This document shows, piece by piece, positions 8,505-49,930 of a stretch of 64,000 nt of DNA (within the stretch, counting starts at the first letter, position 1; every line of letters starts with the position of its first letter). The stretch spans positions 2,080,001 to 2,144,000 of the forward strand of contig CBDFJF010000001.1 in the NCBI GenBank assembly GCA_965248265.1. Direction: 5' to 3'. Both the position numbers and the translations under genes were made by a program. The notes under the pieces are model-generated. The model was not told the origin of the DNA, made no database searches, and was given only the letters and a program-made list of their open reading frames with translations. This stretch comes from Candidatus Latescibacterota bacterium. GTDB lineage: Bacteria > Latescibacterota > UBA2968 > UBA8231.

Positions 8505-10424
8505 TTGAACTCCACCATCCCCAAGATTGGCCTGCTCACAGGCAGTATCCTGGTAGCCCTGGTCATCGGCGAAACGGCCTTGCGCCTGATAGGGAATGTG
8601 ACGGCTCCCGAGGTTCACGAGGAGGACGCGAAGGCCTTACCGGGTTTAGCGCGCGAGGATGAGCTCACCGAATGGTACCCACGGGAGGGCGTGACCCACC
8701 AGCGAACCGCCCCCGATGGCCGGCCCTTTCAGTTACGCATCAACTCCACTGGCCAGCGAGGGAACGAAGTCGGCGAGCGTGCGCCGGGAGAGCTTCGGGC
8801 ACTCTTTCTCGGCGACTCCTTTACCATGGCGCACTCACTCCCCGAAGAGGACACCTTCGTGGGCCGCGCTGGTACCCTTCTCGGGCAGGAATTGCCGTTC
8901 CCGACCATGTGCATCAATGGCGGCGTAAACGGTTACAGCACGTATCAGGAGTTGGCTTACTACCGATACTTCGGCCGCAAGTTGGAACCCGACGTCGTCG
9001 TCCTCTGCTTCTTCCTCGGAAACGATTTCCGCGACAACATGGTCGGCACCCGGCAGGCACGCTCCGTTAACCCGGTGATACTACCGACCTTCGAGCGTTT
9101 TGTGATGCGTCACCAGGAACCCTTTCTGCGACGGGGTGACGCAGCCCTGCGCGATCCGATCTCGGGAGATCTTGTTCTGCGTCCTGAATCAAAGTTCTTA
9201 GAAGTGGTCGAGCGCAACTCGTTTCTTGCTCGGTTGCTCGGTTCGCGCTACGCCAGCATTGTCGGCAAGTGGACCGGTGACATCGCGCTGCTGGATCGGC
9301 ATTCGCGCTACTACTTCTACGAAATCGGCCTGTTTCAACAACGCTTCGACGGATTGTTTCAGACAGCAATTGAGTTGACCCAGGAGGCAGTTCGACAGCT
9401 CCATCTATCTGTCGCCGAGGATGGCGCTGAACTCTTCGTGGTACTGCTGCCCTCACAGCACCAGGTTGATGAAGATCGCTGGCAGCGCACTTTGGCGGAA
9501 CTGGGCGTGACGGAAGATGATCTCGGGAGTCTCGACAAGCGCCATCCGAATCGCTTGATCACCGAGTTTTGCACTGCTCGCGGCATCCCCGTGCTCGATC
9601 TCCACGAACGCTTCGCCACGGCTCCAGACCCGTCAACGCTTTACACAGCCGCGATCGATGACCGGCATTTCTCCGCCGCCGGACAGGTATTGACCGCCGA
9701 GGTGATGGCGAGTTTTCTGGCACCGAGGCTGAGCGGACCTTTTTATAAAGCCACTCAGTCATTTCGATCGGGGCGACAATCAATGGACCGGAAACGTGTG
9801 GCCGCCGCCGAGCGTAGTCTGATCGAGGCATCGCGATTGCGACCACGGTGGAGCGCTCCCCACGTTGCCCTTGGCGAGCTGTACCATCAATCTGGTGCCT
9901 TGGAGAAAGCAGCCCAGCACTTCAATCAGGCCATCGCCCGCAATCCCGAGTCCTGGCGAGCCCGTGAGGGTTTCGCTGAGGTCTGTGTGGCAGGAGGCGA
10001 TCTGGAGACGGCTCTCCAGGCCTATCTCCAGGCCCTGAAGCTGCGTCCGGCGTGGTGGCCATATCGTCAGAGACTGCAGCAGATTCATCTTCTGCGCGGC
10101 GAGACGGTCGCTGCCGCACAACACCAACGCGCCGTTGAGAGTGCCGTCGCGGCATCCGCGCGTGTGAGACGGTTCTGGTGGTCGGAGCATTACGCCGCCG
10201 CCGCGAGGTTCGTCACTCGGAGCAAATGGCCCGAAGCGGAGCGCGAGTTCATTCGCGCCACCGTGTTTCTACCTGAGGACCCGGTATCGTACTTCAACTT
10301 GGCCAGCCTCTACGAACACTTGTCCAGACCAGACGAAGCAGTAGCCACCTACCAGAAAGCCCTTGAAGTGGCACCGGATTTTACGCCCGCGAGAGAGCGG
10401 CTACGCAGTTTGCGCGCGGAGTAA
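8505..10424 (+). CDS. Membrane-anchored SGNH/GDSL hydrolase fused to C-terminal TPR repeats
   Basis: N-terminal TM (IGLLTGSILVALVIGETALRL), GDSF, GVNGYSTYQE, FLGND, DRHF; TPR patterns (LGELY...A...P; NLASLY...A.ATYQKAL..P). Start uncertain: ORF is open from 8319, TTG at 8505 chosen. Confidence 0.75.
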   Translation: MNSTIPKIGLLTGSILVALVIGETALRLIGNVTAPEVHEEDAKALPGLAREDELTEWYPREGVTHQRTAPDGRPFQLRINSTGQRGNEVGERAPGELRALFLGDSFTMAHSLPEEDTFVGRAGTLLGQELPFPTMCINGGVNGYSTYQELAYYRYFGRKLEPDVVVLCFFLGNDFRDNMVGTRQARSVNPVILPTFERFVMRHQEPFLRRGDAALRDPISGDLVLRPESKFLEVVERNSFLARLLGSRYASIVGKWTGDIALLDRHSRYYFYEIGLFQQRFDGLFQTAIELTQEAVRQLHLSVAEDGAELFVVLLPSQHQVDEDRWQRTLAELGVTEDDLGSLDKRHPNRLITEFCTARGIPVLDLHERFATAPDPSTLYTAAIDDRHFSAAGQVLTAEVMASFLAPRLSGPFYKATQSFRSGRQSMDRKRVAAAERSLIEASRLRPRWSAPHVALGELYHQSGALEKAAQHFNQAIARNPESWRAREGFAEVCVAGGDLETALQAYLQALKLRPAWWPYRQRLQQIHLLRGETVAAAQHQRAVESAVAASARVRRFWWSEHYAAAARFVTRSKWPEAEREFIRATVFLPEDPVSYFNLASLYEHLSRPDEAVATYQKALEVAPDFTPARERLRSLRAE

Positions 10425-10523
10425 CGCTTGGTTTTTTGCCCGGGAGAGAGGATTGGCGTTGCTTTCAATCCACCGAGTCTCAATGACTGGATCAAACTGC
10501 CGATCGCATGACAGGAGCCGAAC

Positions 10524-11088
10524 ATGACCGTCGCTAACACGTTCGAGGAGGGACCAGAAGGCTGGTGTTCTTACGACTACCACGCCAGCATGGTCGCCAA
10601 CACAAACTACTTCGTGCTGACCACCTGGGATGAGCGCGGTGGCGCCGAAAACTCAGGCTGTGTATGGGCGGATCATACCCGTTGGAGCACCGACGCCCCG
10701 GAACGACCGATATCCATTCTGCCGTTGATCCTCTACCGCAATTGGGTAGGGAAACCGTCGATCGATCTTCGCGGTGCTGAGCTTGAGCGATGACCTGAAA
10801 CTGGCCGGCGCCGAGTGCTACTTCTGGGCTCATACCTCGGGCACCCGCTGGCATTGCGGCGGCAGACCAGTGGAGATAACCGACGCCCGCTGGGGAGAAC
10901 CTTCAATCCTGTTGTTGGAGAGCGACGAGTCTGTATGGTACAAGAGCTGGATAAGGGATCCGAAAATTGAGGCGAGCCTGGATGAGGTGCTCGGCAGCAC
11001 TACGAGTTACGGGTTTTCCTTCGTCGGCTTTTCCCAGGAAGTCACCGGCAAGTTGTCCATGAGCAGCTTTGAGATCCGCACTGCCTGA
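10524..11088 (+). pseudogene. Hypothetical protein split by a frameshift near 10785
   Basis: AGGAG RBS and ATG at 10524; frame ends ..DLRGAELER* at 10793 while overlapping frame continues SDDLKLAGAECYFWAH.. to 11088 with similar Trp/Tyr-rich composition and no RBS of its own. Confidence 0.6.
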
Positions 11089-17241: not shown

Positions 17242-17410
17242 CCCGAAGCAGCAATCAGGGCAGTCGGTCTCCGACCCTGACGACACCAACCCTGTGTGCG
17301 ATCTCGGTGAAAGCGACCATCGGTGTCCGCGCTGCGGCGACGACTTCATCAGCTGGGCCTGCGAGCTGGTGTGCTGGAACTGCGGCCTCAAATTCACCTG
17401 CGATGAGTGA
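17234..17410 (+). CDS. Small Cys-rich zinc-finger-like protein (58 aa)
   Basis: CPRC-x7-C-x3-CWNC-x5-C; overlaps purF stop and the next start codon. Confidence 0.7.
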   Translation: MHDPKQQSGQSVSDPDDTNPVCDLGESDHRCPRCGDDFISWACELVCWNCGLKFTCDE

Positions 17411-19076
17411 ACGGCTGACGACGGTAGCATTCGTCTTCCTCGCTCTTCTTACGGCCTGTGCGCCTCATACGATTACACCCACCCCACAACTGAGCACCGA
17501 TGGACCCCAGGCAACCGCTCCCCTGCTCGAGGGAGTGGGACAGGTGTCGATGCCTATCACCGCCCGCTCGGCGCATGCCCAAGTCTATTTCAACCAGGGC
17601 ATGGCCCTACTCTACGGCTACTGGTGGTTCGAGGCACGTCGGTCGTTTGAAGCGGCGGTGGAGTTGGACAGTACCTGCGCCATGTGCCATTGGGGCTTGT
17701 TCCAGTCTCTATCTGAAGGCTCCGGCAAAGCACGCACCGCCTTGGACAACGCCAAGCGTTTCGCGCACCTGGCCAGCGTCAGGGAGCAGCATTTCATCAG
17801 GGCGGACGCCCTGTATGATTCCATCGACACCTTTGCCGAAGCTGATGAGGCCTTCATCAGAGAAATGGAGTCAGCGTTGGAGGCCTTTCCGGATGATCTG
17901 AACGCACGGTTGTTTCTCATTCACTTCCTGATGGAAGACCATGACCCGGATGACCCGGCCGATCCTCGCCGCAATCCGGAGCCGATGCTGCAGCGTCTGA
18001 TGGAACAGCACCCTGACCACCTGGCCGTCCACCACTACTGGATTCATGCCGTCGAAGCTGGCAGCCATCCGGAAGTTGCCTTGGAGAGTGCACGCAGACT
18101 CGCTACCCTGGCACCCAATGCCGGCCACATCGTGCACATGCCCGGCCACGTCTACTACCGCACCGGTGACTACGAGCGCAGCCACGACAACTTCGTGCAT
18201 GCCTTCTCCGTCGATTCCACCTACCAGGCGGACTACAGCATCCCTCCGCACCGCAACTGGAATTTCATCCACAACCTCAACTACCTGGTCGCCAATTGTG
18301 GCGAGGATGGACGTTACTCGGAGGGCTTGCGTTGGACTCGCCACCTCGAACAACTGCCGATCGACCCCGATCGACCCCTCGTGTTCTATCAGGGACGACT
18401 GGCGCGCGCCCGCCTGCAGCTGCGCTACGGAATGTGGGAGCAGGCGGCGAATTCACTTGGAGAATTCGCAGACAATGACACTCTCGCGGGTACCTTCGCC
18501 GAGCATTTCGTTGATGGGACCCTCGCGTACGCCCGCGGAATGGCCGCCCTCGATCGAGCAGACCTGGCCGCTGCTACCACGCAGCGCAAGAAACTCGATG
18601 AAATGGAGTGGATCTTCATGATCGGGCCTGTGGACACGGACGACGGCTTCTACTCTGTGAAACGGCGTAACACCTTGCGTGCCTTTTCCCGCGAGTTGCG
18701 CGGTATGTTGCACGCGTTGAACGGAGAGTTCGACAAGGCGACGAAGGCCCTTCAGGAAGCCGTCGACATAGTCAGCGCCATGAGCTACGCCGAGCCTCCT
18801 GAATTTGCCGGGCTGCCTGCCGAGCGCCTGGGAGAGGCGCGCCTGCTGGCCGGCAACTGGGAGGCTGCGGAATCAGCCTTCCGTCTGTCACTGGAGGCCC
18901 GTCCCGCCAACGGGCATGGGCTGTACGGGTTGGCGAGAGCGCTCGCAGGGCAGGGACTGATGGAGGAAGCCGGGCAGACCTATGCCAGATTCGTGGACAC
19001 CTGGCGACATGGAGATCTTGACCTGCCCCAACTCCAGAACGCCAGGTCCTGGCTGGAGTCGGCGGACGGCGGTTAA
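17403..19076 (+). CDS. TPR-repeat lipoprotein with His-rich motifs
   Basis: Lipobox LTAC after hydrophobic stretch; AQ.YFNQG..L.YG...EA.RSF, HYWIH, GHIVHMPGHVY, P.NG.GLYGLA. Confidence 0.8.
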   Translation: MSERLTTVAFVFLALLTACAPHTITPTPQLSTDGPQATAPLLEGVGQVSMPITARSAHAQVYFNQGMALLYGYWWFEARRSFEAAVELDSTCAMCHWGLFQSLSEGSGKARTALDNAKRFAHLASVREQHFIRADALYDSIDTFAEADEAFIREMESALEAFPDDLNARLFLIHFLMEDHDPDDPADPRRNPEPMLQRLMEQHPDHLAVHHYWIHAVEAGSHPEVALESARRLATLAPNAGHIVHMPGHVYYRTGDYERSHDNFVHAFSVDSTYQADYSIPPHRNWNFIHNLNYLVANCGEDGRYSEGLRWTRHLEQLPIDPDRPLVFYQGRLARARLQLRYGMWEQAANSLGEFADNDTLAGTFAEHFVDGTLAYARGMAALDRADLAAATTQRKKLDEMEWIFMIGPVDTDDGFYSVKRRNTLRAFSRELRGMLHALNGEFDKATKALQEAVDIVSAMSYAEPPEFAGLPAERLGEARLLAGNWEAAESAFRLSLEARPANGHGLYGLARALAGQGLMEEAGQTYARFVDTWRHGDLDLPQLQNARSWLESADGG

Positions 19077-19834
19077 CCACCACACTTACCGCCGCCGCAT
19101 TTACCTCCCCCACACTTGCCACCGCAACCGCCGCAGCCGCCACCACACTTGCCACCGCCACACCCGCCACATCCCCCACAGCCACAACAACCACAACCAC
19201 CCCCAGCAGCGTCAGGGCTGTCGGTCAGGCGTGAGACCAGGTGGATGTCGACATGCGTACCGACTTTCAGGACGAGCATCTCCGGACGCTCGATCCCGTA
19301 GTCGGCCAACGCGACTCTAAAATTTGCTTTCAGGGCAACGATGTTGCCCGGCAGTACGCCTTTCGTGGCTTCACTGCCCTCGATGTAAGTGATCGTCGCC
19401 TTGACGGTCTCCTTGCGGCTGACACCGTGAAGGGTCATTGTGCCTTCGGCCTCCACGTCAACGGACTCACCAGATTTCACCTTTGACTTGGAGGCGCTGG
19501 TGATCTTCTCCAGCTTGAAGGTCGATGTCGGATAGTCATCGGTGTGGAGAAAGTTGTCGCGAAAATGCTCGTCTCGCAGGTCGATTCCGGTGTTGAATGA
19601 CGTGACGTCGACGGTGAATTCCCCGTAACCGTTCCCGTTGACGTTGTTCGGGTCGAATTTGTAGTGCCCGGACACGCCGGCACTGGTCCCGACAATCGTT
19701 TCCAGCGGCGCCGAGATATTGAACGTCACCGTGTTCCCGGGATCGTTCTTGCCGGTCGCGAACTCGGCCGTCAACGCGGGACTGACTGCCAACAGGCCAG
19801 CGGCCAGAGCGACAACAGTGTTGCGTAAGCGCAT
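19073..19834 (-). CDS. Secreted YceI-family (lipid/polyisoprenoid-binding) protein with C-terminal Gly/Cys-rich tail
   Basis: Signal peptide MRLRNTVVALAAGLLAVSPALTA; SFNTGIDLRDEH, FL.TD.YP...F, G.MTLHGV, L.DYGI; GGAAGG RBS; 43-aa G/C/K tail. Confidence 0.88.
   Translation of the reverse strand: MRLRNTVVALAAGLLAVSPALTAEFATGKNDPGNTVTFNISAPLETIVGTSAGVSGHYKFDPNNVNGNGYGEFTVDVTSFNTGIDLRDEHFRDNFLHTDDYPTSTFKLEKITSASKSKVKSGESVDVEAEGTMTLHGVSRKETVKATITYIEGSEATKGVLPGNIVALKANFRVALADYGIERPEMLVLKVGTHVDIHLVSRLTDSPDAAGGGCGCCGCGGCGGCGGGKCGGGCGGCGGKCGGGKCGGGKCGG
19076..19204 (-). repeat. Low-complexity coding repeat (GGC/GKCGG)n
   Basis: Encodes GGGCGCCGCGGCGGCGGGKCGGGCGGCGGKCGGGKCGGGKCGG with varied synonymous codons. 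Confidence 0.9.
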
Positions 19835-19980
19835 TGGTCTTGCCTTCCGATGAATGTGAGTGGAAATCACAGACGGTCCCGCCTTCGAGACGCCTGTCCC
19901 ATGCATACAATGCGGACCGGATGCCAGATGGTCTGTGAACTTTTCACACCCCTCCCACGATAGGTGTGCGTCGTGGACCG

Positions 19981-20859
19981 TCATGGCAGAGGCTGGAACT
20001 CGACCAGGCGTGACCGAGCCGTCTCAAAGGCGGGCGTTCCGACGTATTGCACTGCGGAGGGCGAAATTGAGTCGATGTGCTCGAAGTGGACGTGGCCGCA
20101 GAAGATGGCGACCAGGTTGGTGGCAGCGGAGATTACCCGTGCGAACTCGATAGTGACGTCGGTGCCCGCCCTCGACGGGTCCCCCGCAGGATCTGCCAAA
20201 AGCAGGGGGGTCTCCCATTTGTCAATCGTGGGTCCGCGCAGAGTCGGCACGCTGATGGGAATATGAGTCAGCAGGACCGTCGGCAGTTCAGCAGCCAGCT
20301 GTTCCGTAGCAAACTCCAGCTGCTCTTCACTGACCTGGTAGATCGAGTTGTCGATGGCCACGAAGCGGATACCACCTATGTCGCGTACCTCATGTGAAGG
20401 CCGGCCCCCGGTGAGCGTATCCAACGACGGCCAGTTCTGTTCCCGCAATCCGGCTACGTTCTCTACTCCTGCAAAAAGCCAGTCGTGGTTGCCTGAGGTG
20501 TACATGAACTCGAGGCCGGTGCTCGTCAGGCCGGCGGTGGCCCGTTCGATGTTGGCTTGCGACGGGAAGTGGATCAGATCTCCGGTGTGAGCCAGCAGAT
20601 CAATCCCCGTCCCCATCGAGGTGGCTCCCGCCATCATCGTGTCGAAGGTCGTCTCCGTGAAGACGCTGTTGCCATCCGCGTCCAGACGGCGCGCGCCGAA
20701 GCGCTCGTGGGCACCGCTGCACGCTTCCACATGGTCGGCATCGCGCTCGTCGATCAGCGCCAGGTGGGTGTCGGTCACATGCAGAAGGCGAACCGTGTCC
20801 GCCAGTCCTTCGACCTTGATCATCGCTGTGTCATCTTTACAGGTGTGGGTGATGCGCAT
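19981..20859 (-). CDS. Calcineurin-like metallophosphoesterase
   Basis: HVTDTH, TGDL, GNHD, THIP, CGHVH motifs. Confidence 0.88.
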   Translation of the reverse strand: MRITHTCKDDTAMIKVEGLADTVRLLHVTDTHLALIDERDADHVEACSGAHERFGARRLDADGNSVFTETTFDTMMAGATSMGTGIDLLAHTGDLIHFPSQANIERATAGLTSTGLEFMYTSGNHDWLFAGVENVAGLREQNWPSLDTLTGGRPSHEVRDIGGIRFVAIDNSIYQVSEEQLEFATEQLAAELPTVLLTHIPISVPTLRGPTIDKWETPLLLADPAGDPSRAGTDVTIEFARVISAATNLVAIFCGHVHFEHIDSISPSAVQYVGTPAFETARSRLVEFQPLP

Positions 20860-20886
20860 TCGGATTCTCTCCAAGAGTCGCGGCCA

Positions 20887-21993
20887 TCAATGGACAGCCA
20901 GTTCTTTCTTCTCATCATTGTCCGACTCGAATTGACGCCACAAATCTTCCAGATGCGAAGCGGCAGGCAACTCCGGACTGCGAATGATGAGATGCCGTAC
21001 GTGTGTCGTGAACTTGCCGCCAGGTTCGAGGCTGAGTTTACCCGGGTAGAGGACGTAGTCCATTGCCACCCCCTTCATGCCGCACGAAATACCGGCGGTG
21101 TGTTGCCGCTCGGTCAGAATCACGTGCCGCCATCCAGCATCCGTGGCGTGGCCGACCAACAGGGGAAACCGCCATGTCGCGTTGATGACGCCCTCGGTAC
21201 GGGGAAAATGCGGGATGCAGTTGAGCTCGAGAAACGGAGAGCTCGGATCCACAACGAAGGCCTGGAGATGAAAGACAAAAATGTCCAGGAAGTTCACCAG
21301 CCCCCCGGCTTCCGTGTGCCAGAAGAAGCAGCCGTTAAGCCCATTGATCTGGGTGTAATTGGCGAAGAACTGGCTGTACTCCACCATGGTCTCAGTGCCG
21401 ACATTTTCGATGGTGATCAGGCAGTCGTATTGAATGGTGTCCGAAACGACCACGTCGGTGAAATCCCAGAGTTGGCTGGTGCGTACTCCGTCTACCTCGT
21501 ACGCGCTCCAGACCCCCATTCGACCATCGTCGTCGATGCTGCCCGACTCGGCCGGCGTTCGCCGTGGACGCATCTCCAGGCCATGTGGCCGTCCTCGCCA
21601 CATCTGCCACTCCCTGCAGTCCCACGAACAATGGCTGCCGGGGCGTTGACGGGGATCGCCGTCGTATCGGACTTCGTAATCGGAATCGGGGACTGGTCGA
21701 CCCCATCCAGAAACTGACCCGGGTGGCGACAGCAGAGTCGCCGTTCCTGCCTCGTGAGCACCAATCCACTGACGCGGCCCTCGCCGGTAGGTCATGGTGA
21801 GACGCTCGTCCACCGGCTGGAACCACTCCACGCCCGTGTAGGGATGTCCATCCCCGCGTACCGTGATGGCCGCGGCGGCGTCACCGGCCACCGTTCGCAA
21901 CAAGATGTCGTACATCGTCGACTTCTTCTCGTGCGGCCAGAGATCGTCGTCCCCAGTGTATTCCAGAATGCGCTGGCTGAACGTGGAGTTCAT
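20887..21993 (-). CDS. Hypothetical protein
   Basis: 368-aa ORF with GAGG RBS, 27 bp upstream of co-directional phosphoesterase; no family recognised. Confidence 0.65.
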   Translation of the reverse strand: MNSTFSQRILEYTGDDDLWPHEKKSTMYDILLRTVAGDAAAAITVRGDGHPYTGVEWFQPVDERLTMTYRRGPRQWIGAHEAGTATLLSPPGSVSGWGRPVPDSDYEVRYDGDPRQRPGSHCSWDCREWQMWRGRPHGLEMRPRRTPAESGSIDDDGRMGVWSAYEVDGVRTSQLWDFTDVVVSDTIQYDCLITIENVGTETMVEYSQFFANYTQINGLNGCFFWHTEAGGLVNFLDIFVFHLQAFVVDPSSPFLELNCIPHFPRTEGVINATWRFPLLVGHATDAGWRHVILTERQHTAGISCGMKGVAMDYVLYPGKLSLEPGGKFTTHVRHLIIRSPELPAASHLEDLWRQFESDNDEKKELAVH

Positions 21994-22056: not shown

Positions 22057-23166
22057 GTGTCACGAATAGTCATCTGCGGTGGTGGCGTCATCGGCGCCTC
22101 GATCGCCTATTTCCTGAGTCTGCGCAATGTCGAAGCGGTCGTGATCGAGCGTACCGGCATCGCCAACGCCGCTTCCGGCAAATCAGGCGGTTTTCTAGCA
22201 CTGGACTGGTGTCATGGTACTCCAGTCGATGCCCTGGCCAGAAGGAGCTTCGCGCTGCATGAGGAGCTGGCCGCCACACTTGCCTCCGAAATGGAGCTGG
22301 AGTGGGGTTACCGGCGGCTGGACACCCTCAGTGTCGCCGCCAGCCAACAACGCGATCTCAGCTCTTTGGCCCGGCTTGAATCACCCAGTTGGGTGGCCCC
22401 GGCCGCTGCCGTGCACTCGCGGATCGGCACCCAGGAGACAACCGCGCAGGTAAACCCCGCGGCCTTCACTCAGAGTCTGATGAAAGCAGCCGAAGCGAAC
22501 GGTTCTCGCCTCGTCATCGGCACGGTGGAAGGAGTAGCACTTACCGATGATGGACGCCGGGTAACCGGGGCCATCGTCGATGGCGACGAAGTAGAGGCAG
22601 ACGCCGTCGTCATCGCTATGGGACCGTGGTCAATTCTCGCTTGCCAGTGGCTGCCGCTGCCAGCCGTGTACGGACTCAAAGGCCACAGCATAGTGTTCCG
22701 CTTCACGCCGAAGGACCCGCATGCGCTCTTCCTCGAGCTGGAGACGGAGGCTGGTGACGTGGAGACGCCCGAAGTGATGCCCCGTACGGATGGCACCACC
22801 TACGTCTGCGGCCTCTCCGCGGAAACCGCGCTGCCCGTAGACCCGGCACAGGTCGTCGAGGAACCCGGAGCCTGCGAACAGTTGCGCGCCATGACCTCGG
22901 CGGTCTGCCCCGAACTGGGTGCATCCGAGGTGCTGGCGGCACAGGCCTGCTATCGCCCGGTGACGGTGGATGGCTTGCCGTTGATTGGGCGCGTTCCGGG
23001 TGTGGATGCAGCCTTCGTCGCCACCGGGCACAGCGTCTGGGGGATGCTGAACGGGCCTGCTACCGGCGAGGCCATGGCGGAGCTCATCGTCGATGGGACA
23101 GCCTCCACCGTGGACATTACCGCTTTTGATCCGGCTAGGCAGCCGGCGTTCTCGCTACCGCAATAG
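22057..23166 (+). CDS. FAD-dependent oxidoreductase, DAO/glycine oxidase family
   Basis: ICGGGVIGA, ASGKSGGFL, AMGPWS, QACYRP...DGLPLIG, GHSVWG.LNGPATG; GTG start at 22057. Confidence 0.88.
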   Translation: MSRIVICGGGVIGASIAYFLSLRNVEAVVIERTGIANAASGKSGGFLALDWCHGTPVDALARRSFALHEELAATLASEMELEWGYRRLDTLSVAASQQRDLSSLARLESPSWVAPAAAVHSRIGTQETTAQVNPAAFTQSLMKAAEANGSRLVIGTVEGVALTDDGRRVTGAIVDGDEVEADAVVIAMGPWSILACQWLPLPAVYGLKGHSIVFRFTPKDPHALFLELETEAGDVETPEVMPRTDGTTYVCGLSAETALPVDPAQVVEEPGACEQLRAMTSAVCPELGASEVLAAQACYRPVTVDGLPLIGRVPGVDAAFVATGHSVWGMLNGPATGEAMAELIVDGTASTVDITAFDPARQPAFSLPQ

Positions 23167-24618
23167 CAGCACCTTCTGGACCTGATCCATCCCGCCTGCG
23201 CGCATGCGAATCGAGTAGACACCGCTCGCTGTGGCTTGTCCTGCGCTGTCTTTACCATCCCATCGCACTTGGTAGTAGCCGGCTTGTTGGGTTCCGTGAG
23301 TGAGCACGCGAATCAGCTGCCCCGCCAGGTCGTAGACGGCTATCTCCACCACGGATTTCCGAGAGAGGCTGTAGGGAATTACTGTATCAGGGTTGAATGG
23401 ATTCGGGTAATTCTGACCCAGTTCGAAAGCGACCGGAGTAGCCCCGTACTCCTCGGCGATGGCCGTGGGTGCTACTGGGGCTACTTCGGGACCGACAGCG
23501 TAGTAGACGAGTCCCGTCGACGACGAGCCCGAGTTGTCAATCTCGTAGAACGCGATATGTGGCCTGCCACCGGCCTCCACTTCCAGGGTCACAAACTGAG
23601 CCAGGAACTGATCGTCCTGGATCGGGCCGGTAACGTCCTCTATCTCCCAACTGTCTTCCATCTTGGTGGCGAAACGCAACACCGATCTATCAGCATAGGC
23701 CACGTGGACGTTGTCTCCTTCATCCAGAGCGACGGCGGTAGTTCGACGCGCCCCGATGAAGGCGATCTGAAGGTCGCTGAGATCGTCGACGATATCGAAA
23801 TTCCACTCCTCCCCGTCGTGGAAGGCGTATTTGACTCTGCCGGCCTGCTGCCCGGTGCGGTCCAGGTAGGTGATGTGGGGCCGGTTGGCGCTGTCCAGCG
23901 CTATGGATGGAAATTTGCCGACATCTCCATCGACATCCACTTGCTCGATCTGCCACTCGCCATCGCTCAACACGGCGTAGAACAGATCAGCTCCCGGGCT
24001 AGTGGTGTTGAGACGCGATTCACCATCGTGGTAGACGACATGAAGGCGGCCGTCTTCACTGATCGCCATGGCAACCCCGAATTCGTAGGGAATGCCTCCA
24101 CTGCCGATCTCCTCCACCTGCCAGTTTCCGTCGCGTCGCACCGCCCATTCGATCCCGGACGAGGAGCCAAACTGGGACGGATCGATTGAGACGATGTGCA
24201 CATCTCCGGCTGGATCGACCGCGATCCTGCCATCCCAACCGTCGTGACCTTCATGCACGATGACCTCCAGCGACCAGTCCTCTTGAGAGCCCACGGCGTA
24301 CACGATGTCCTCGTTGTCGTGGTCGTGGTAGGCAATGTGGATCAGGTCGTCATCGTCGATGGTCATGTCCAGGGGTGCATAAAAATAACCTTCGGATATA
24401 GTGTCGATTTCCCAGGTGCCGTCATCATCTCTGAGTCCGTGGAACACGCCTCCCCCGAACGACTCTATCATGTATGCCATATGCGGACGGCCCTGATTGT
24501 CGAGTCTTACTTCGGGCTTCGTCCCCTGCCTGGTGACGAATTCGATCTGCCACCCCTCCTGGCCAAACGCCGCCGTTGCCATCGTGGCTGCGACCAACAA
24601 AACGCTCACTCTCAACAT
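23155..24618 (-). CDS. Secreted beta-propeller-like protein with T9SS-type/FlgD Ig-like C-terminal domain
   Basis: Signal peptide; repeated W.IE.v....G....iAlD....pHi.Y units; LGQNYPNPFNP...IAVYDLAGQ.IR.L...WDGKD..G...ASGVY. Confidence 0.8.
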   Translation of the reverse strand: MLRVSVLLVAATMATAAFGQEGWQIEFVTRQGTKPEVRLDNQGRPHMAYMIESFGGGVFHGLRDDDGTWEIDTISEGYFYAPLDMTIDDDDLIHIAYHDHDNEDIVYAVGSQEDWSLEVIVHEGHDGWDGRIAVDPAGDVHIVSIDPSQFGSSSGIEWAVRRDGNWQVEEIGSGGIPYEFGVAMAISEDGRLHVVYHDGESRLNTTSPGADLFYAVLSDGEWQIEQVDVDGDVGKFPSIALDSANRPHITYLDRTGQQAGRVKYAFHDGEEWNFDIVDDLSDLQIAFIGARRTTAVALDEGDNVHVAYADRSVLRFATKMEDSWEIEDVTGPIQDDQFLAQFVTLEVEAGGRPHIAFYEIDNSGSSSTGLVYYAVGPEVAPVAPTAIAEEYGATPVAFELGQNYPNPFNPDTVIPYSLSRKSVVEIAVYDLAGQLIRVLTHGTQQAGYYQVRWDGKDSAGQATASGVYSIRMRAGGMDQVQKVLLLR

Positions 24619-30960: not shown

Positions 30961-31194
30961 ATGACGATGTTCGTACTGCTGCAGAATGCTGCGCCCACAC
31001 AGCAACGGCTCAAAGCAGCCATCGATGAGTTCAACCGATCGATCAGCACGGAGACGCTGATCGTGTCAGCCGTTGTGCTGCTGATCGCTCTGCTGTGGCT
31101 CTACGCCATGAAACGTGCCTACCAGGCCTGGTTCATGCGCAAGCATGGTTTCCAGGATTCGTATATGCGAAAACGCAAGAAGTTCGACGACTGA
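30961..31194 (+). CDS. Small single-TM hypothetical protein
   Basis: 77-aa ORF with one hydrophobic helix and basic C-terminus. Confidence 0.55.
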   Translation: MTMFVLLQNAAPTQQRLKAAIDEFNRSISTETLIVSAVVLLIALLWLYAMKRAYQAWFMRKHGFQDSYMRKRKKFDD

Positions 31195-31298
31195 CCCGAC
31201 ATCTCTTGCCATTGCGACGGCGGTCTTTGTTCATTACGCCTGCCCGTCAAGGAACTCACGACCTCCCGGTGTTTGTGCTTGCGTGCGGAACACACTGC

Positions 31299-31335
31299 TG
31301 GCGGCGCACGCCTCCGGATTTGGCGCAAACCGCCA
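31299..31335 (+). promoter_or_regulatory. Putative tandem enhancer (UAS) sites for the PspF-like activator
   Basis: TGGCG-GCGCA-CGCCT (31299-31313) and TGGCG-CAAAC-CGCCA (31321-31335), 22 bp apart, about 80 bp upstream of a sigma54 promoter; same palindrome recurs before pspA2. Confidence 0.65.
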
Positions 31336-31412
31336 TTCGATCAGTCGAAAGGAATGTTGTAACTCGTTTTCCCAGTGAGAGCTTGCGACATTATTATCGA
31401 GTCCTGTCGGGC

Positions 31413-31428
31413 TGGCACATCCCTTGCA
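31413..31428 (+). promoter_or_regulatory. Sigma54 (-24/-12) promoter of the pspA1 operon
   Basis: TGGCAC-ATCCC-TTGCA. Confidence 0.85.
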
Positions 31429-31523
31429 TAACAGGTGGCAGACCCCTGCGTTGCACCACAGATGGTGCGCAGTCGAAATGCCAGGGGTACTGGACGAATC
31501 GAAAAGGTGACGGGAGAGCGAAA

Positions 31524-32219
31524 ATGGCCAAGGGAATGTTTGCTCGCATGGCGGATATCGTGAAGTCAAACATCAACGAGCTGCTTGACCGGGCGGAAGA
31601 ACCGGAAAAGATGATTCGGCAGATGATCCGCGAGATGGAGGACGCCGTGGGCAAGGCCACCGCGTCGGTCGGCACGGCGTTGGCCAACCAGAAACGGCTG
31701 GAGCGTCAGCGGAATGAGAAGCTGACCCAAGTGGCTGAGTGGCGGCGCAAAGCGGAGATCTCCGTTGCGGCGGGTGACGACGATCTGGCTCGGCGAGCAC
31801 TCGAGCGCAAGAGCGGGCTTCAGAAAGCGGCTGATGAACTGGGTCCGGCCGTGGAAGAGAGCAGTCAGATGGCCGAGCAACTCAAGGAGCAGCTACGGGA
31901 ATTGAAAGGAAAGCTGGAGGAGGCGCGTACCCGTCAGGGAACGCTGGTGGCGCGCCATCAGGCGGCCCGGGCGCGGGCTAAACTTGCCCAGAGCATCAAT
32001 GGGCTGGGAAGCGACGCGTTCTCGAGTTTCGAGCGCTTCGAGCAGAACGTCGAGCGCAGTGAAGCCGAAGCCGAGGCCCACACCGAGATCGCCGGCGAAT
32101 TGGCCGAGGTCGAGCGCCAAGCAAACCGTCTCGATCGCGAGGTGGCCGTGGATGATGAGTTGCGGGCGCTGAAGGAAAAGCACAACGCCCAAACGGGCGG
32201 GGACCAAACACGAGACTGA
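31524..32219 (+). CDS. pspA: PspA/IM30 family protein (paralogue 1)
   Basis: GMFARMADIVKSNINELLDRAEEPEKMIRQMIREMED, W..KA.....GDDDLAR.AL..K, FERFE..V...EAEAEA, VDDEL.ALK. Confidence 0.95.
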   Translation: MAKGMFARMADIVKSNINELLDRAEEPEKMIRQMIREMEDAVGKATASVGTALANQKRLERQRNEKLTQVAEWRRKAEISVAAGDDDLARRALERKSGLQKAADELGPAVEESSQMAEQLKEQLRELKGKLEEARTRQGTLVARHQAARARAKLAQSINGLGSDAFSSFERFEQNVERSEAEAEAHTEIAGELAEVERQANRLDREVAVDDELRALKEKHNAQTGGDQTRD

Positions 32220-33153: not shown

Positions 33154-33306
33154 ATGGATATTCTGTGGAAAATCGCCGGGGTCGTCCTACTGATCGGCGG
33201 CGCGATCATCGCCTTCAAACTGATCGCCAGTATGTTGATGTTTGTCGTCACCGTGGCGGTCGCCGGAGGGCTCATTTACGGCGGTTACCGGTTGCTGACG
33301 CGTTAA
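33154..33306 (+). CDS. Small two-TM membrane protein (50 aa, not in ORF track)
   Basis: AGGAG RBS at 33141; MDILWKIAGVVLLIGGAIIAFKLIASMLMFVVTVAVAGGLIYGGYRLLTR; its TAA overlaps the kinase ATG. Confidence 0.78.
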   Translation: MDILWKIAGVVLLIGGAIIAFKLIASMLMFVVTVAVAGGLIYGGYRLLTR

Positions 33307-34697
33307 TGGTGCAGACGGCCGGTACAGAGGACGCCGCCGCGGGCGCTGTCGCGTCAGAGACGGAGGTCTTCTTTCGGCGGGGTATGGCCCTGCTGAAAGA
33401 TGGTCAGCAGGTCGAAGCGAGGGAGGAACTCGAACGCGCCGCCTCTGCCGGCCACATGGAGGCGCACTTTCAACTGGCTCTGCAGTACGCACGCGACGGG
33501 CGGCACCAGCGCGAGATACATAGACGCGCCGTCGAGCACCTGGAAGCGATTCTCGCATCAGCGGACGAACCGGACGGGATCGATACCCTCACCGCTGGCC
33601 TCGATCGGGTTTGTTTCGCCCTTGGCGGTTTGTACGCCGACAGCAACGGAGAGGGATCGCTGCAGCGCGGCATCGAAGTCTACCGCCGCGGGCTGACGAT
33701 CAATCCCCTGTCCGCGGTCGGTCACAGCAGTCTTGGACTCTTGCTCAAGAGGGCCGGGCATTACCTCGGCGCTCTCGGCGAATGCAAGCTGGCCATTCAA
33801 CTCGACCCCGACCACAAGGCGGCCTACACCAGCCTCGCTCAGCTGCTGTGCGAACACGTCGATGCGCAGGATCTGGCCACCGAGTATGCCCACATGATGG
33901 AAGAGTTCGGGGAGAGCGCACCGCGCGTGATCGCGACGTTGTCCATCGAGCTGATGGAACAGGGCCGTGGACAGATGCAGCGGGAAATGTACACGAAGAG
34001 CCACCAACTCAAGAATCTGCTGGGTCTCGTCGGCAGCCGTCTGCGCCGCGTCAGCCGCAAGCTGACGAAACGGGAAAAGGTATCAGCACCATTGGAGGAG
34101 CTCGTCGACGAGGTTGGCGAGGAGATGCACGGCGTCGAAGCGGAGTACGAACGACTCTACGAAGAATGGGTCGGTTTCCTGGCGGCGCTGACGCCGGACA
34201 CCCTATACACCAGCCTGGTGGAACCGGGGCGTGTCGTCGAGCGCGTGCTCGAAGCGCTGAGGCCGCGGGCCGGGGACACGGCACTGAAGTTGAGAACTCA
34301 TGAAGGGGTCCCCCGCATTCAAGCCGACGAGCGACTCCTGCGCGATGTGATTACCAACCTGTGCCTGAACGCCCTCGAAGCGACGGCAGAGCTGGGAGCC
34401 GGAACTGAGATTTCGGTAGGAGTGGGATATGATGCCAGCGCCGGTGTCGTCTTCGTCGAAGTCGAGGACGAGGGCCCCGGGATCGCCCCCGAGTACATCG
34501 ATCACGTCTTCGATCCAGGGTTCACTACCAAGGACAACGGCAGTGGCTACGGCCTGAGCATCGCTCGCCGCATCGCCCTGGCACACCACGGCGATCTCAG
34601 GGTGAAGAGCAAAATCGGGCACGGCAGCGTCTTCCGACTGGACATACCCGTGAACTTCGATGCGGAGGCTGGTCCTCACCTGGGGGAGATCCGGTAA
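33306..34697 (+). CDS. Soluble TPR-domain sensor histidine kinase
   Basis: N-terminal TPR/Sel1-like helices; H-box SHQLKNLL, N-box NLCLNALEA, G1 DEGPGI, F FDPGFTTK, G2 GSGYGL; no TM. Confidence 0.88.
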   Translation: MVQTAGTEDAAAGAVASETEVFFRRGMALLKDGQQVEAREELERAASAGHMEAHFQLALQYARDGRHQREIHRRAVEHLEAILASADEPDGIDTLTAGLDRVCFALGGLYADSNGEGSLQRGIEVYRRGLTINPLSAVGHSSLGLLLKRAGHYLGALGECKLAIQLDPDHKAAYTSLAQLLCEHVDAQDLATEYAHMMEEFGESAPRVIATLSIELMEQGRGQMQREMYTKSHQLKNLLGLVGSRLRRVSRKLTKREKVSAPLEELVDEVGEEMHGVEAEYERLYEEWVGFLAALTPDTLYTSLVEPGRVVERVLEALRPRAGDTALKLRTHEGVPRIQADERLLRDVITNLCLNALEATAELGAGTEISVGVGYDASAGVVFVEVEDEGPGIAPEYIDHVFDPGFTTKDNGSGYGLSIARRIALAHHGDLRVKSKIGHGSVFRLDIPVNFDAEAGPHLGEIR

Positions 34698-34698
34698 C

Positions 34699-36123
34699 AT
34701 GGCGCCCACCGAAGCTGCCGGCGTTGTGCTGATCGCCGACGATCAACCAGAGGTACTGGACGTGTTGGCGCAGCATCTGCGCACTCGCGGCAAGCAGGTG
34801 TTGGAGTTTCCCACTGGTGCCCTGCTCGCCCAGCATTTGAATCAGACCGCCGACGCCGTCGAGCTGGTCGTGCTGGATCTCGACTTCGGTGCCGGCGAGC
34901 AGGATGGCATCGCCACCCTCAGGCAGATCAAGCGAGATCGTCCCGACACCCCCGTCATCATCCTCACTGGCAAGGGCAACGTCGACGCCGCCGTCGACGC
35001 CGTGCAGCAGGGCGCGGCTGATTTCATCGAAAAGGACCTATTCGTCGAGGACAAGCTCGAACTGAGCATGGAAAAGGTGGAGCGCATGCTGCAGGTCTTG
35101 CGTGAGAACGCTGAACTGCGCGCCCGCAACCAGACCTTGGACCGCGACAACACGCTCTATCGCTCAGAACTGGGGCTCCGTTACCGCATCATCAGCGACA
35201 GCCCCAAGATTCACAGCATCCTGCGCCAGGTCGAACAGATCGCCAGCGTGCCGCGACCCGTCCTGATCCGGGGCGAGCGCGGCACGGGCAAGGAACTGAT
35301 CGCCGCGGCCCTCCACTACGGCAGCGATCGCGCCGATCGTCCGTTCGTCAAGCTCAACTGCGCGGCGGTGTCGGAATCACTCCTCGAAGCAGAGTTGTTC
35401 GGCCACGAAAAAGGCGCGTTCACCGGCGCCAATGAGGCGCGGCCCGGTCGCTTCGAAATGGCCGATGGCGGCACGCTGTTCCTTGATGAAATCGGTAACA
35501 CCAGCCTGGAGTTTCAGCAGAATCTGTTGCGTGTCATCGAGTACCCCGAGTTTGAGCGCATAGGCGGCAAGCACACGATTCGAGTCGACGTGCGCGTGGT
35601 CGCGGCGACCAATGCCGAACTCGAGGAAGCGATCACGCAGGGCAGTTTCCGAGCCGATCTCTACGATCGACTGCGATTCTCTGAACTGTCGATACCGCCG
35701 TTGCGACAGCGACGCGAAGACATCCGATTGCTCGTCGATTTTTTCGCTGCCGAGATGACGCGGGAAGTCGCCTCGATACCGGCACGCGGCTTCAACCCCC
35801 AGGCGCTGGCCGCCTTGGAAACCTATGGCTGGCCGGGTAACGTCAGAGAGCTCAAGTTTGCCGTCGAAAGGGCCCTGTGCGTGGCGACGGGTGAAGCCGT
35901 GGAGCCGGCCGATCTGCCACCTGAGATCACCATCGGCAAGACCGCCCCGAGCGACCAGACGACAGCCTCCTTCGACGATCAACTGGAAGGACTCGAACGC
36001 GGTATACTGCGACGCGCACTCGACGAGGCCAATGGCAGCCAGAAGAGTGCTGCAACCGCACTCGGCCTCACCTATGACCGCTACCGGCACCTGCTGCGCA
36101 AGCACAGCCTCACCGGCCAGTAG
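34699..36123 (+). CDS. Sigma54-dependent response regulator (REC-AAA+-HTH), PspF-like
   Basis: REC (ADD, LD, T, K); [48 protein letters not shown]; PspF-type [25 protein letters not shown]. Confidence 0.92.
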
Positions 36124-36452: not shown

Positions 36453-37163
36453 ATGATGGTCAAGTCAACGCTGGGTCGAATCGGACACATTCTGTCATCC
36501 AGTGTCAACGACGCTCTGGACCGACTCGAAGATCCGGAGAAGCAGGTGCGTCAACTCATCCGGGACATGGAGGCAGCAATCGAGGACGCCATCCGTTCGG
36601 TGAGTACGGCGGTCGCCGATGAGCGACGGCTTGCCCGTCGCTGCGAAGAGGATGAGCGTCAGGTGAAGAAGCTCGACAAGTTGGCCCGTCGCGCGATCGA
36701 AAGCGGCGACGAGAGTCTCGCCCGCGCCATGACCGTACGTCGACTGGCGTACGAGCAGGCGAGCGCCGTCGATGCCCTCGGCGAAAGCCGCGACACCGTG
36801 ACCAGGCTGAAAACCCAACTCACCGAGATGCGTTGCAACCTGCAGCAGGCACGAGACCGACAAGGCAGTCTGATCGCTCGTATTCGGGCGGCCAGATCCA
36901 TGCCGGGATGGTCGACGACGGCCACGGCTCAGAAGGAAGATCCCTACGCGGACTTTCAGCGTCTTGCGTGCAAGCTCGATCGCAGTCGCGAAGAGCTCGA
37001 ACACCTCAGGGCTGAGGTCGAAATCTTCGAAGAGACCAAGGTGGGAATAGAAGAGGAACAGACCGGCACCGGGGCGGCATTCGAAAGGCAGGTGCGAGAT
37101 CTCGAGCTGAAACGGCGTATCGACGAGGAGATGGATCTGCTGCGACAGAAAGTGGGCACCTGA
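36453..37163 (+). CDS. pspA: PspA/IM30 family protein (divergent paralogue 2)
   Basis: GAGGAGG RBS; LGRI..ILSS.VN.ALD.LEDPEK..RQLIRDME, A..AI..GDE.LAR, IDEEM..LR.K. Confidence 0.85.
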   Translation: MMVKSTLGRIGHILSSSVNDALDRLEDPEKQVRQLIRDMEAAIEDAIRSVSTAVADERRLARRCEEDERQVKKLDKLARRAIESGDESLARAMTVRRLAYEQASAVDALGESRDTVTRLKTQLTEMRCNLQQARDRQGSLIARIRAARSMPGWSTTATAQKEDPYADFQRLACKLDRSREELEHLRAEVEIFEETKVGIEEEQTGTGAAFERQVRDLELKRRIDEEMDLLRQKVGT

Positions 37164-39744: not shown

Positions 39745-40584
39745 ATGATCAAACTCAGTCTGCAATCCCTTTCTTTCGGACACACATTCAACGCCGGCGA
39801 AATTGACCTCGTGGGTATCATCGACAAGGCTGCTGAGTTGCGGATGGACGGCGTGGACCTGCACTTCCAGCACTTTGCTTCCACTGACGACGATTATCTC
39901 GAGCACTTGCGCCATCTTTGCCTCAGGCAGGGCCTGCACGTCTGCTACATCGGCATCAGCAATAACTTTCTCAAGACAGGCGCTGAATACGATGAGCAAA
40001 TCCAGCTCTGCAAAGACTGGATCGATGTGGCGGCAAGGATGGGCGTCCCCATGGTCAGGCTGTTCGGTGGCTGGCTGAACGAAGGGCAGACGGAGGAGGA
40101 GGCTTGGCCTCAGTTGGTGGCGGCGACGAAGGAGGTCGTGGCGTACGGACGCTCGAAGCACACCGTGTGCGCGCTGCACAACCACAACCACGGTTGCATT
40201 CCTGCCACGGGCGATCAAGTCGTCCGCATCCTCGATGAAATCGACGACCAGTACTACTCGCACATCCTCGACACCGGTCAGTACCGCGGCTCACCCGGTG
40301 CCTCCTTCGGCGAGCGCGGCAAAGAGGACCCCCAGTACGACTTTTACGGCAGCATCGCCACCAGCGCCCCGCGAGCCGCCCAGGTACGTGCCAAGATCTA
40401 TCGCATTGTCTCGGGCACTGAGGCCTGGCTCGATTACGAGCGCATCATGCCCATTTTGAAGAGCGTGGGGTTCAACGGTTGGATGTCATTGGTATTCGAA
40501 GGCCAGGATGAGCTCGACGAACCCACCGCCATGCCGCTGGCCAACCAGTATCTGCGCGATCTGCTGACAAGGCACGAGATGTGA
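39745..40584 (+). CDS. Sugar phosphate isomerase/epimerase family (AP endonuclease 2 TIM barrel)
   Basis: DGVD, WID.AA..G.P.VR.F.G, HNH, LDTG, LDY..I..IL...GFNG..S..FEG. Confidence 0.82.
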   Translation: MIKLSLQSLSFGHTFNAGEIDLVGIIDKAAELRMDGVDLHFQHFASTDDDYLEHLRHLCLRQGLHVCYIGISNNFLKTGAEYDEQIQLCKDWIDVAARMGVPMVRLFGGWLNEGQTEEEAWPQLVAATKEVVAYGRSKHTVCALHNHNHGCIPATGDQVVRILDEIDDQYYSHILDTGQYRGSPGASFGERGKEDPQYDFYGSIATSAPRAAQVRAKIYRIVSGTEAWLDYERIMPILKSVGFNGWMSLVFEGQDELDEPTAMPLANQYLRDLLTRHEM

Positions 40585-43413: not shown

Positions 43414-43532
43414 GTATTTGCGAATGCCAAACCGATTCATAGATTGGATGCCTCCGTGGCACCGCAGTTGAGAGCGCCATGTACCGAACGACACTTGAGT
43501 GTCGTCCCTGCACACAAGGTCGAGACCACCAT

Positions 43533-47117: not shown

Positions 47118-47120
47118 CCC

Positions 47121-49928: not shown

Positions 49929-49930
49929 GC

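Follow-up and report, generated by a model that had tools for sequence, protein, structure and literature searches.

The 64,000-nucleotide window analyzed here, a stretch of contig CBDFJF010000001.1 (positions 2,080,001 to 2,144,000) of the uncultured marine organism Candidatus Latescibacterota bacterium, carries a gene for a Sec-exported lipocalin of the YceI family with a disordered, glycine-spaced poly-cysteine C-terminus. By analogy with known cysteine-rich proteins, the likeliest role of the tail is to sequester metals or reactive compounds. Our leading account, held with somewhat less than even confidence, is that its disordered poly-thiol chain may bind soft metals in stoichiometric amounts and do so without prior modification.

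The open reading frame (ORF) is read from the minus strand and translates into 253 amino acids plus a stop (Table 1). Its start at position 19834 is supported by a common Met in all 22 aligned homologues that possess an N-terminus (the P0025 row of the 23-row alignment lacks one), by a GGAAGG upstream and by a signal-peptide-like N-terminus. On inspection, the latter has a basic n-region, a hydrophobic core and LTA preceding the predicted cut, with no lipobox Cys; the AlphaFold2 model has no hydrophobic helices past the signal peptide. A promoter and terminator scan of positions 18800-21100 detected no site relevant to the yceI gene.

YceI lipocalins are widespread, and their physiological role is debated, the proposals being a quinone carrier, an antibiotic sink and lipid-radical defense. 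The window protein belongs to this family by both profile and fold. It matches Pfam PF04264 with an E-value of 4.1e-24 (86.1 bits versus a cut-off of 23.7; positions 9-146 of the 150 in the profile), and AlphaFold2, using an alignment of 23 sequences, modeled the barrel confidently. The top Foldseek matches in PDB were 1wub, 1y0g, 7bwl, 3hpe and 5ixh (E 4e-12 to 4e-11; target-normalized template-modeling scores 0.77-0.83). NCBIfam returned nothing besides YceI at E≤0.1, and the database names of these proteins are merely "YceI family protein" or "polyisoprenoid-binding protein YceI". The signal peptide and eight-stranded barrel are shared with the YceI/BcnA lipocalins (PF04264; 1wub, 1y0g, 7bwl, 5ixh), whereas the window clade bears an extra disordered tail with, in the window protein, 12 Cys; BcnA and its homologues have no cysteines (PMC9113575).

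A short linker joins the barrel to the tail. The tail, residues 211-253, consists solely of Gly (27), Cys (12) and Lys (4) and contains four GKCGG units, while the remaining 210 residues of the protein contain no Cys. Translation, Pfam and residue counts thus bear out the first-pass annotation, which had described a complete YceI domain followed by a 43-residue Gly/Cys/Lys tail with four such units. Its cysteines form five CxxC, two CxC and one CC spacing, all of which are familiar from metallothioneins. The tail is predicted to be disordered, with AlphaFold2 confidence values (pLDDT) of 34-38 across residues 212-253. The codons are varied, as had also been observed before: Gly is encoded by GGT (11), GGC (10), GGG (4) and GGA (2), and Cys by TGT (9) and TGC (3). 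Tandem Repeats Finder detected imperfect DNA repeats only, the best being 33 nt × 2.3 with 76% matches. Three relatives with 78-86% identity (P0002, P0003, P0004) bear like tails, so faulty assembly of this contig does not explain its presence. A protein search with the tail alone (residues 206-253) recovered only the query among 8000 scored candidates, and residues 200-253 gave no usable match in a language-model atlas.

A word-indexed search identified 54 relatives, two of which (P0026, P0027) are truncated fragments. We surveyed the tails of the 25 closest (54-88% identity), all of which have an RLTD-type domain end. At least four tail Cys were present in 19, which between them show six repeat types, and 0-2 in the other six (P0005, P0006, P0018, P0022, P0023, P0024), some of which come from very short contigs. 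The expectation that close homologues would retain the tail was therefore upheld, and it extends to three of the genomic loci described below (L001, L003, L004). The repeat type differs by lineage, with GGKCG in P0001-P0004 and CGGCGG, CDGGCGG, GAGGCGxC, SCGGSEG, ACNPCGG or GKCNPCG elsewhere, and the net charge of the tail is basic (K), acidic (D/E) or neutral. Judging from this comparison, evolution appears to keep cysteine density and composition while the repeat sequence changes. The 239-residue P0005 (88% identity over 81% of the query) has an Ala-rich tail, AAAANAKPASVAAAAASAEDD..., with a final CSG; either a GC-rich Gly/Cys repeat has been read in a shifted frame here, or the replacement is genuine. 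Pfam searches of nine tail-bearing relatives at E≤1 returned, beyond YceI, only weak sub-cut-off matches: the low-complexity families Cornifin, Mst87F, MSSP and DnaJ_CXXCXGXG, plus four matches of an unrelated kind (DUF1439, G8, GBS104-like_Ig).

A genome scan yielded 30 loci, of which L001-L004 (59-63% identity) come from metagenome-assembled genomes labeled Gemmatimonadetes or Latescibacterota. L001, L003 and L004 encode complete Gly/Cys tails, and the L002 contig ends inside its tail. The tail is absent from all eleven loci L005-L015 (≤45% identity; Calditrichota, Zixibacteria, Kapabacteria, Bacteroidota and others); this reading covers L001-L015, the YceI frames of the weak matches L016-L030 having been left unread. 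Across 518,288 bases (the window plus the 30 loci), a composition scan found Gly/Cys runs confined to YceI genes. Its other rows were Cys-rich without a Gly/Cys repeat and were taken for chance frames, and its threshold missed the L002 tail (three Cys, cut by the contig end).

To these we added a profile search of 1.84 billion cluster representatives, which gave 5816 YceI relatives at E≤0.001, and inspected the best 150 for Cys-rich stretches (at least four Cys in 25 residues). Fifteen had a Cys-rich low-complexity stretch, 11 at the C-terminus and four at the N-terminus directly after the signal peptide; P0057 and P0104 have one at each end, and the majority of the 15 stretches are of the NPCNPC type. 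Among the other 135, 70 have no Cys at all. Because Cys-rich stretches occur at both the C- and N-termini of YceI relatives, the module appears to be position-independent. The same 150 representatives include three proteins (P0149, P0171, P0183) in which YceI is joined to a C-terminal region with two CxxCH motifs and Cytochrome_CBB3 or Cytochrom_C matches, and two tandem YceI-YceI proteins (P0092, P0094).

The number of repeat units varies even between proteins that are otherwise identical. We read 12 of the 67 members of the P0015 cluster (≥90% identity). The YceI domain is identical in 10 of them, and lengths of 222, 230, 246, 254, 262 and 270 amino acids reflect tails with 0-6 copies of the eight-residue unit GAGG[CS]G[GS]C, equivalent to 2-14 Cys; some alleles have odd Cys totals (7, 11). 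The tail is also the sole difference within the pairs P0016/L004 and P0015/L001. At the DNA level, the tails of relatives are near-perfect tandem repeats (L001, 24 nt × 6.0, 91%; L003, 18 nt × 3.3, 95%; L004, 24 nt × 3.1, 94%), which, together with the tail-only differences, indicates that tails evolve as units are added or lost. By its sequence, the window tail looks like an older array, degenerate in its DNA but still purely Gly/Cys/Lys in its protein, and this combination argues for selection on composition. The earlier claim that selection rather than DNA slippage maintains the tail is thus borne out for the window copy but does not carry over to the relatives, with their 91-95% repeats and copy numbers that differ between identical proteins.

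The most conserved element of the tail is its very end. A Cys at position -3 (C-G/S-x-COOH) is present in 22 of 28 sequences (19 of the 25 close homologues plus L001, L003 and L004), compared with about 27% expected if stop codons fell at random within the Cys-rich part, a contrast that kinship among the sequences inflates. All 12 P0015-cluster members read end in GAGGCGE, and the -3 Cys is retained in relatives with one or two tail Cys (P0005, CSG; P0022, CGD; P0024, CGE). Among distant C-terminal tails of the NPC type, 1 of the 10 examined has it.

Given these properties, we propose that the protein would be exported through the Sec pathway with its barrel serving as a soluble, exportable carrier, and that the disordered Cys arm would be employed as translated, with no MNIO-type modification. 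The arm would then constitute a thiolate sponge in the periplasm or envelope for thiophilic ions such as Cu(I), Zn(II), Cd(II) and Hg(II), with repeat number setting the binding capacity. Metal binding by the thiols, the identity of the metal, and the reduced and unmodified state of the arm are all parts of this proposal that we infer. Several observations support it. All 12 Cys are concentrated in a 43-residue Gly/Lys stretch. The disorder, the Cys/Gly purity, the free variation in repeat type, charge and copy number, and the placement at either terminus point to stoichiometric use of thiols or thiolates rather than to catalysis, sorting or an enzyme-recognized motif. The variation from 2 to 14 Cys likewise suggests a stoichiometric role, as neither catalysis nor sorting would require 14 Cys. 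Lastly, Pfam searches of the neighboring genes, covering 51 ORFs of the window (12 + 39) and 65 ORFs within ±10 kb in L001, L003 and L004 (the eight of L002 were left out), detected no modifying enzyme encoded nearby, which supports an unmodified arm.

The tail resembles metallothioneins and phytochelatin-like Cys/Gly peptides in its Cys content of about 28%, its CxxC, CxC and CC spacings and its Lys residues beside Cys; it differs from metallothioneins in being non-homologous, exported, fused to a lipocalin and a hypervariable tandem repeat. Precedents for exported Cys-repeat Cu(I) binders are the bufferins and oxazolins, and the TIGR04222 proteins offer a precedent for unstructured periplasmic Ser/Gly/Cys tails (available portions of PMC12452194 and PMC11252979).

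A number of points weigh against such a sponge. The argument from composition is one of analogy only. No metal-homeostasis gene adjoins yceI in the window, L001, L003 or L004 according to Pfam, and neither Pfam nor NCBIfam matched the protein to a metallothionein or other metal-binding family; in the Pfam test for metallothioneins, YceI was the only match for P0001 (E≤0.01) and for P0004 and P0020 (E≤1). The oxidizing periplasm could turn the Cys into disulfides rather than thiolates. The recurrence of tails on YceI specifically hints at cooperation with the barrel ligand, as do the redox contexts of relatives (di-haem cytochrome c fusions, Rieske, MarR/FMN-reductase/pirin), and the conserved terminal Cys-Gly-X is needless for a sponge.

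These hints lead to a second explanation, which we regard as unlikely on balance but deserving real weight: the tail may belong to a thiol-quinone redox or scavenger module in which the Cys arm reduces, is oxidized by, or captures a quinone or lipid electrophile bound in the barrel. The captured species would be reactive quinones, aldehydes or lipid radicals, and the arm would replace the cytochrome and iron-sulfur partners of other YceI proteins. Structures of YceI proteins contain ubiquinone-8 or octaprenyl ligands, and BcnA together with the cytochrome b561 LcoA defends against lipid peroxyl radicals (PMC9113575). The X158 domains of Cbp2D/E are YceI-like and quinone-binding, and in Cbp2D they are fused to c-type cytochromes (available portion of PMC8981238). 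Three of the best 150 representatives are YceI-di-haem cytochrome c fusions. Tail-less relatives lie in the arrangements FMN_red-Pirin-MarR-YceI (L005, 8160-10636), MarR-YceI (L006, 9414-10531) and YceI-Rieske (L008, 9701-11043; L014, about 9905-11040), contexts that suggest a quinone- or electrophile-stress or redox role of this YceI subfamily. No cytochrome b561 gene was found by Pfam among the 51 window ORFs, and this explanation alone accounts for the recurrence of Cys tails on YceI. Nevertheless, one CxxC would be enough for catalysis, yet the number of Cys varies freely from 2 to 14; we identified no partner in the periplasm, whether reductant or oxidant; the gene contexts cited are those of homologues with ≤45% identity; and the barrel ligand is here only presumed. 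A more elaborate form of the idea, which we consider rather unlikely, is that arm and barrel constitute a self-contained envelope redox device. In this device, the poly-CxxC arm would swing to the barrel mouth and exchange electrons or form adducts with a bound isoprenoid quinone, providing a soluble substitute for cytochrome b561, di-haem cytochrome c or Rieske protein whose capacity is tuned by repeat copies.

The first-pass annotation had instead likened the tail to HvfA-type precursors modified by MNIO (DUF692) enzymes. HvfA, 95 residues long, has three AEGKCGEGKCG repeats and a signal peptide of 24 residues; six of its Cys are converted by HvfB (an MNIO) and HvfC together to oxazolone/thioamide pairs that bind Cu(I) (available portion of PMC11252979), and a Buf_EGKCG cluster comprises genes for the precursor, an MNIO, a DUF2063 protein and a DoxX protein (available portion of PMC12452194). 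An MNIO or other Cys-modifying enzyme encoded elsewhere in the genome could make thiooxazole or oxazolone-thioamide Cu(I) ligands on the tail before export, but we consider this improbable. The resemblance itself is real: GGKCGGGKCGGGKCGG of the window protein has the pentad period and GKCG core of the HvfA repeat, and the two proteins have in common a Sec signal peptide (by inspection here), a repeated xGKCG near the C-terminus and a five-residue Cys spacing. Moreover, HvfBC also acts on small fragments and can do without the signal peptide (PMC11252979, in the same portion). Also on record are precursors exported by Sec, bufferin domains fused to larger proteins (MerC with Buf, EGKCG with EF-hand), stand-alone precursor genes and TIGR04222 proteins with Gly/Ser/Cys tails, and MNIO is missing in 490 of 1372 genomes with TIGR04222 proteins (PMC12452194, likewise).

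However, no DUF692, DUF2063 or DoxX match was found by Pfam in any of the 51 window ORFs or the 65 ORFs of L001, L003 and L004; radical SAM was unmatched in the same set. That no MNIO gene lies in the window, as first stated, therefore holds, while the proposal that the tail is an MNIO substrate finds no local support. The GKCG motif is restricted to the closest relatives (P0001-P0004, P0069), orthologues carrying unrelated repeats, so that the proposed HvfA likeness stands for Cys spacing in the window clade but not as a motif conserved across orthologues. A motif that changes in this way is more easily reconciled with a need for composition than with enzymatic recognition. Whereas HvfA is small and encoded with MNIO, DUF2063 and DoxX genes, the window protein is no small precursor but a folded lipocalin with a 190-residue folded domain and none of these genes nearby, and its repeats have Gly in place of Glu. 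Compared with the Buf_EGKCG type, GKCGG recurs four times at the same pentad spacing, but there is no Glu and there are no 17-residue repeats. Furthermore, Buf_EGKCG proteins are described as mostly from Pseudomonadota (available portion of PMC12452194), the word YceI is absent from this MNIO landscape paper, and YceI was the sole NCBIfam match. The TIGR04222 proteins share with the window protein an unstructured, Gly-rich, Cys-interspersed C-terminal tail facing the periplasm, but most of these multi-pass membrane proteins come from Actinomycetota, and their genes often lie beside an MNIO gene (same portion of PMC12452194), whereas the carrier here is a soluble lipocalin; the TIGR04222 model did not match the window protein (NCBIfam, E≤0.1). 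Of the function first suggested, a thiol or metal role thus remains plausible from the retained Cys-rich tail, and the modified-substrate part is unsupported. Separately, a xylose-isomerase-like TIM-barrel ORF (39745-40584) was considered as a hidden MNIO and rejected: its sole Pfam match at E≤1e-4 is AP_endonuc_2, and it lies about 20 kb off, beside a short-chain dehydrogenase/reductase (SDR) gene and two sulfatase genes.

The gene converging on yceI encodes a tetratricopeptide repeat (TPR) lipoprotein. The two stop codons overlap in the palindrome GGTTAACC (19071-19078), giving a 4-nt overlap with no intergenic terminator; in L001, about 75 bp separate the two genes. Wherever a tail-bearing yceI has a downstream flank (the window, L001, L003 and L004, but not L002), a TPR orthologue (43% identity) lies beside it; the 26 other loci have none. 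This arrangement raises the idea, to which we give a small chance, that the tail has a structural role, either forming intermolecular disulfides (oligomers or envelope cross-links) or acting as a ligand of the TPR lipoprotein that tethers YceI to the membrane. Four further YceI/TPR pairs are apparently common to one assembly each, and the fold matches of the TPR protein, while generic, include binders of C-terminal tails, for instance Tom71, which binds that of Hsp70. On the other hand, the genes are convergent and hence not co-transcribed, adjacency may be lineage synteny given that the TPR family extends well beyond the tail clade (646 matches at E≤1e-10, including Acidobacteriota and Flavobacteriia), and some alleles have an odd number of Cys. 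Complex prediction with TPR residues 40-549 and mature YceI (24-253) returned "no answer" with a score of 0.00, which speaks neither for nor against binding. We consider a functional YceI-TPR link a lead, not a finding.

The TPR protein was modeled with a pLDDT of 92.8, and PDB sequence search, fold search and the atlas gave generic TPR matches only. In a 42-sequence alignment of the family, H203, H207, E210, H237, H241, N279, H282 and N283 are invariant, and this His/Glu/Asn cluster looks like a metal or active site. Haem binding by the CAMCH of the window protein was set aside, as the corresponding sequences in L001, L003 and L004 are CAMAW, CAVAW and CALAW; CAMCH is the majority motif in the TPR family.

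That the tail is a functionless low-complexity expansion, a slippage-prone GC-rich 3′ repeat tolerated rather than selected, seems to us hardly probable. The near-perfect DNA repeats of L001, L003 and L004 and the freely varying copy number in the P0015 cluster speak for such an expansion, yet 19 of 25 homologues retain the frame that encodes Cys even though their repeat units are unrelated, the window protein remains purely Gly/Cys/Lys although its DNA repeats have degenerated, the terminal Cys is conserved, and distant YceI proteins have acquired Cys-rich stretches at either end. Very improbable, finally, is a SoxY-like swinging arm in which the C-terminal Gly-flanked Cys (and upstream Cys) would hold sulfane sulfur, or some other substrate, covalently and pass it from one envelope enzyme to the next: the excess of Cys at -3, its persistence in tails with one or two Cys and the sole documented precedent, the sulfur-binding Cys in the carboxy-terminal GGCGG of SoxY (available portion of PMC6067878), which is likewise periplasmic with a Gly-flanked Cys at -3, are outweighed by the YceI rather than SoxY fold, the several Cys that a carrier does not need where SoxY, a Sox-system member, has one, the resemblance to GGCGG of the terminal KCGG alone in the window protein, the lack of Pfam matches to sox, dsr or further genes of sulfur oxidation among the scanned ORFs of the window, L001, L003 and L004, and the prospect that the ending could in part be a by-product of CGG-type repeats.

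Table 1. Positions of the yceI gene, its parts and other features. Coordinates refer to the window unless a locus is named.
Feature	Position	Strand	Basis
Exported YceI-family protein with Gly/Cys/Lys tail, whole gene	19073..19834	-	Translation, Pfam, homologues (≤88% identity over aligned part)
Putative ribosome-binding site GGAAGG, 8 nt upstream of ATG	19843..19848	-	Read from sequence
Predicted Sec signal peptide, residues 1-23, MRLRNTVVALAAGLLAVSPALTA, cut before EF	19766..19834	-	Inspection
YceI lipocalin-like beta-barrel, residues 35-199	19238..19732	-	Pfam PF04264, AlphaFold2, Foldseek
Predicted disordered tail, residues 211-253	19076..19204	-	Composition count, AlphaFold2 pLDDT
C-terminal Cys-Gly-Gly-COOH, Cys at -3	19076..19084	-	Homologue comparison
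Convergent TPR lipoprotein, lipobox LLTA/C (cut before C)	17403..19076	+	Pfam, sequence reading, orthologue comparison
TPR lipoprotein orthologues, about 550 aa	L001 10864-12597; L003 12169-13848; L004 12119-13852	- (all)	
Two sulfatases	40581-42065, 42058-43413		
Hybrid sensor kinase, Reg_prop/Y_Y_Y domains	43479-47117		
TonB-dependent receptor with CarboxypepD_reg domain	47121-49928		
Weak phytase-like ORF	49931-51004		

Elsewhere in the window, yceI is preceded on the same strand by a gene for a calcineurin-like phosphoesterase. Two genes upstream, also on the same strand, is a 368-residue ORF (20887-21993, minus strand) with no Pfam or NCBIfam match, the 5′ end of which overlaps the annotated start of an opposite-strand FAD oxidoreductase ORF. 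The product of 23155-24618 (minus strand) has BNR_4 and FlgD_ig matches and a Por_Secre_tail match below the cut-off (22.6 bits versus 27); from the latter comes a hint that a C-terminal domain for type IX-like secretion may be in use in this organism, which is unlike the YceI tail. In the segment 31095-37163, two PspA/IM30 genes (31095-32219 and 36453-37163) flank a TPR histidine kinase (33165-34697) and a receiver-domain sigma-54 activator (34660-36123). The last four features of Table 1 make up a polysaccharide-utilization-like block (40581-51004).

Our literature search found no description of Cys-tailed YceI proteins or of such cysteine-rich periplasmic tails, and a search on the tail peptide motifs returned only nucleotide CGG-type repeats, with neither NPCNPC nor CNPCG in the papers listed. 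The YceI domain and Cys-repeat metal binders are each known; their combination, its hypervariability and the conserved terminal Cys are new. The occurrence of a GKCG repeat with no MNIO nearby marks a limit to motif-only mining for MNIO substrates. If the arm binds metal, it would represent a new periplasmic metallothionein-like architecture that dispenses with enzymes for peptides that ribosomes make and that are modified after translation (RiPPs); if it works with the barrel ligand, it would link YceI to thiol-quinone chemistry. In either case, the repeatedly acquired Cys arms of this clade, of differing type, terminus and copy number, constitute a natural experiment on the function of YceI.

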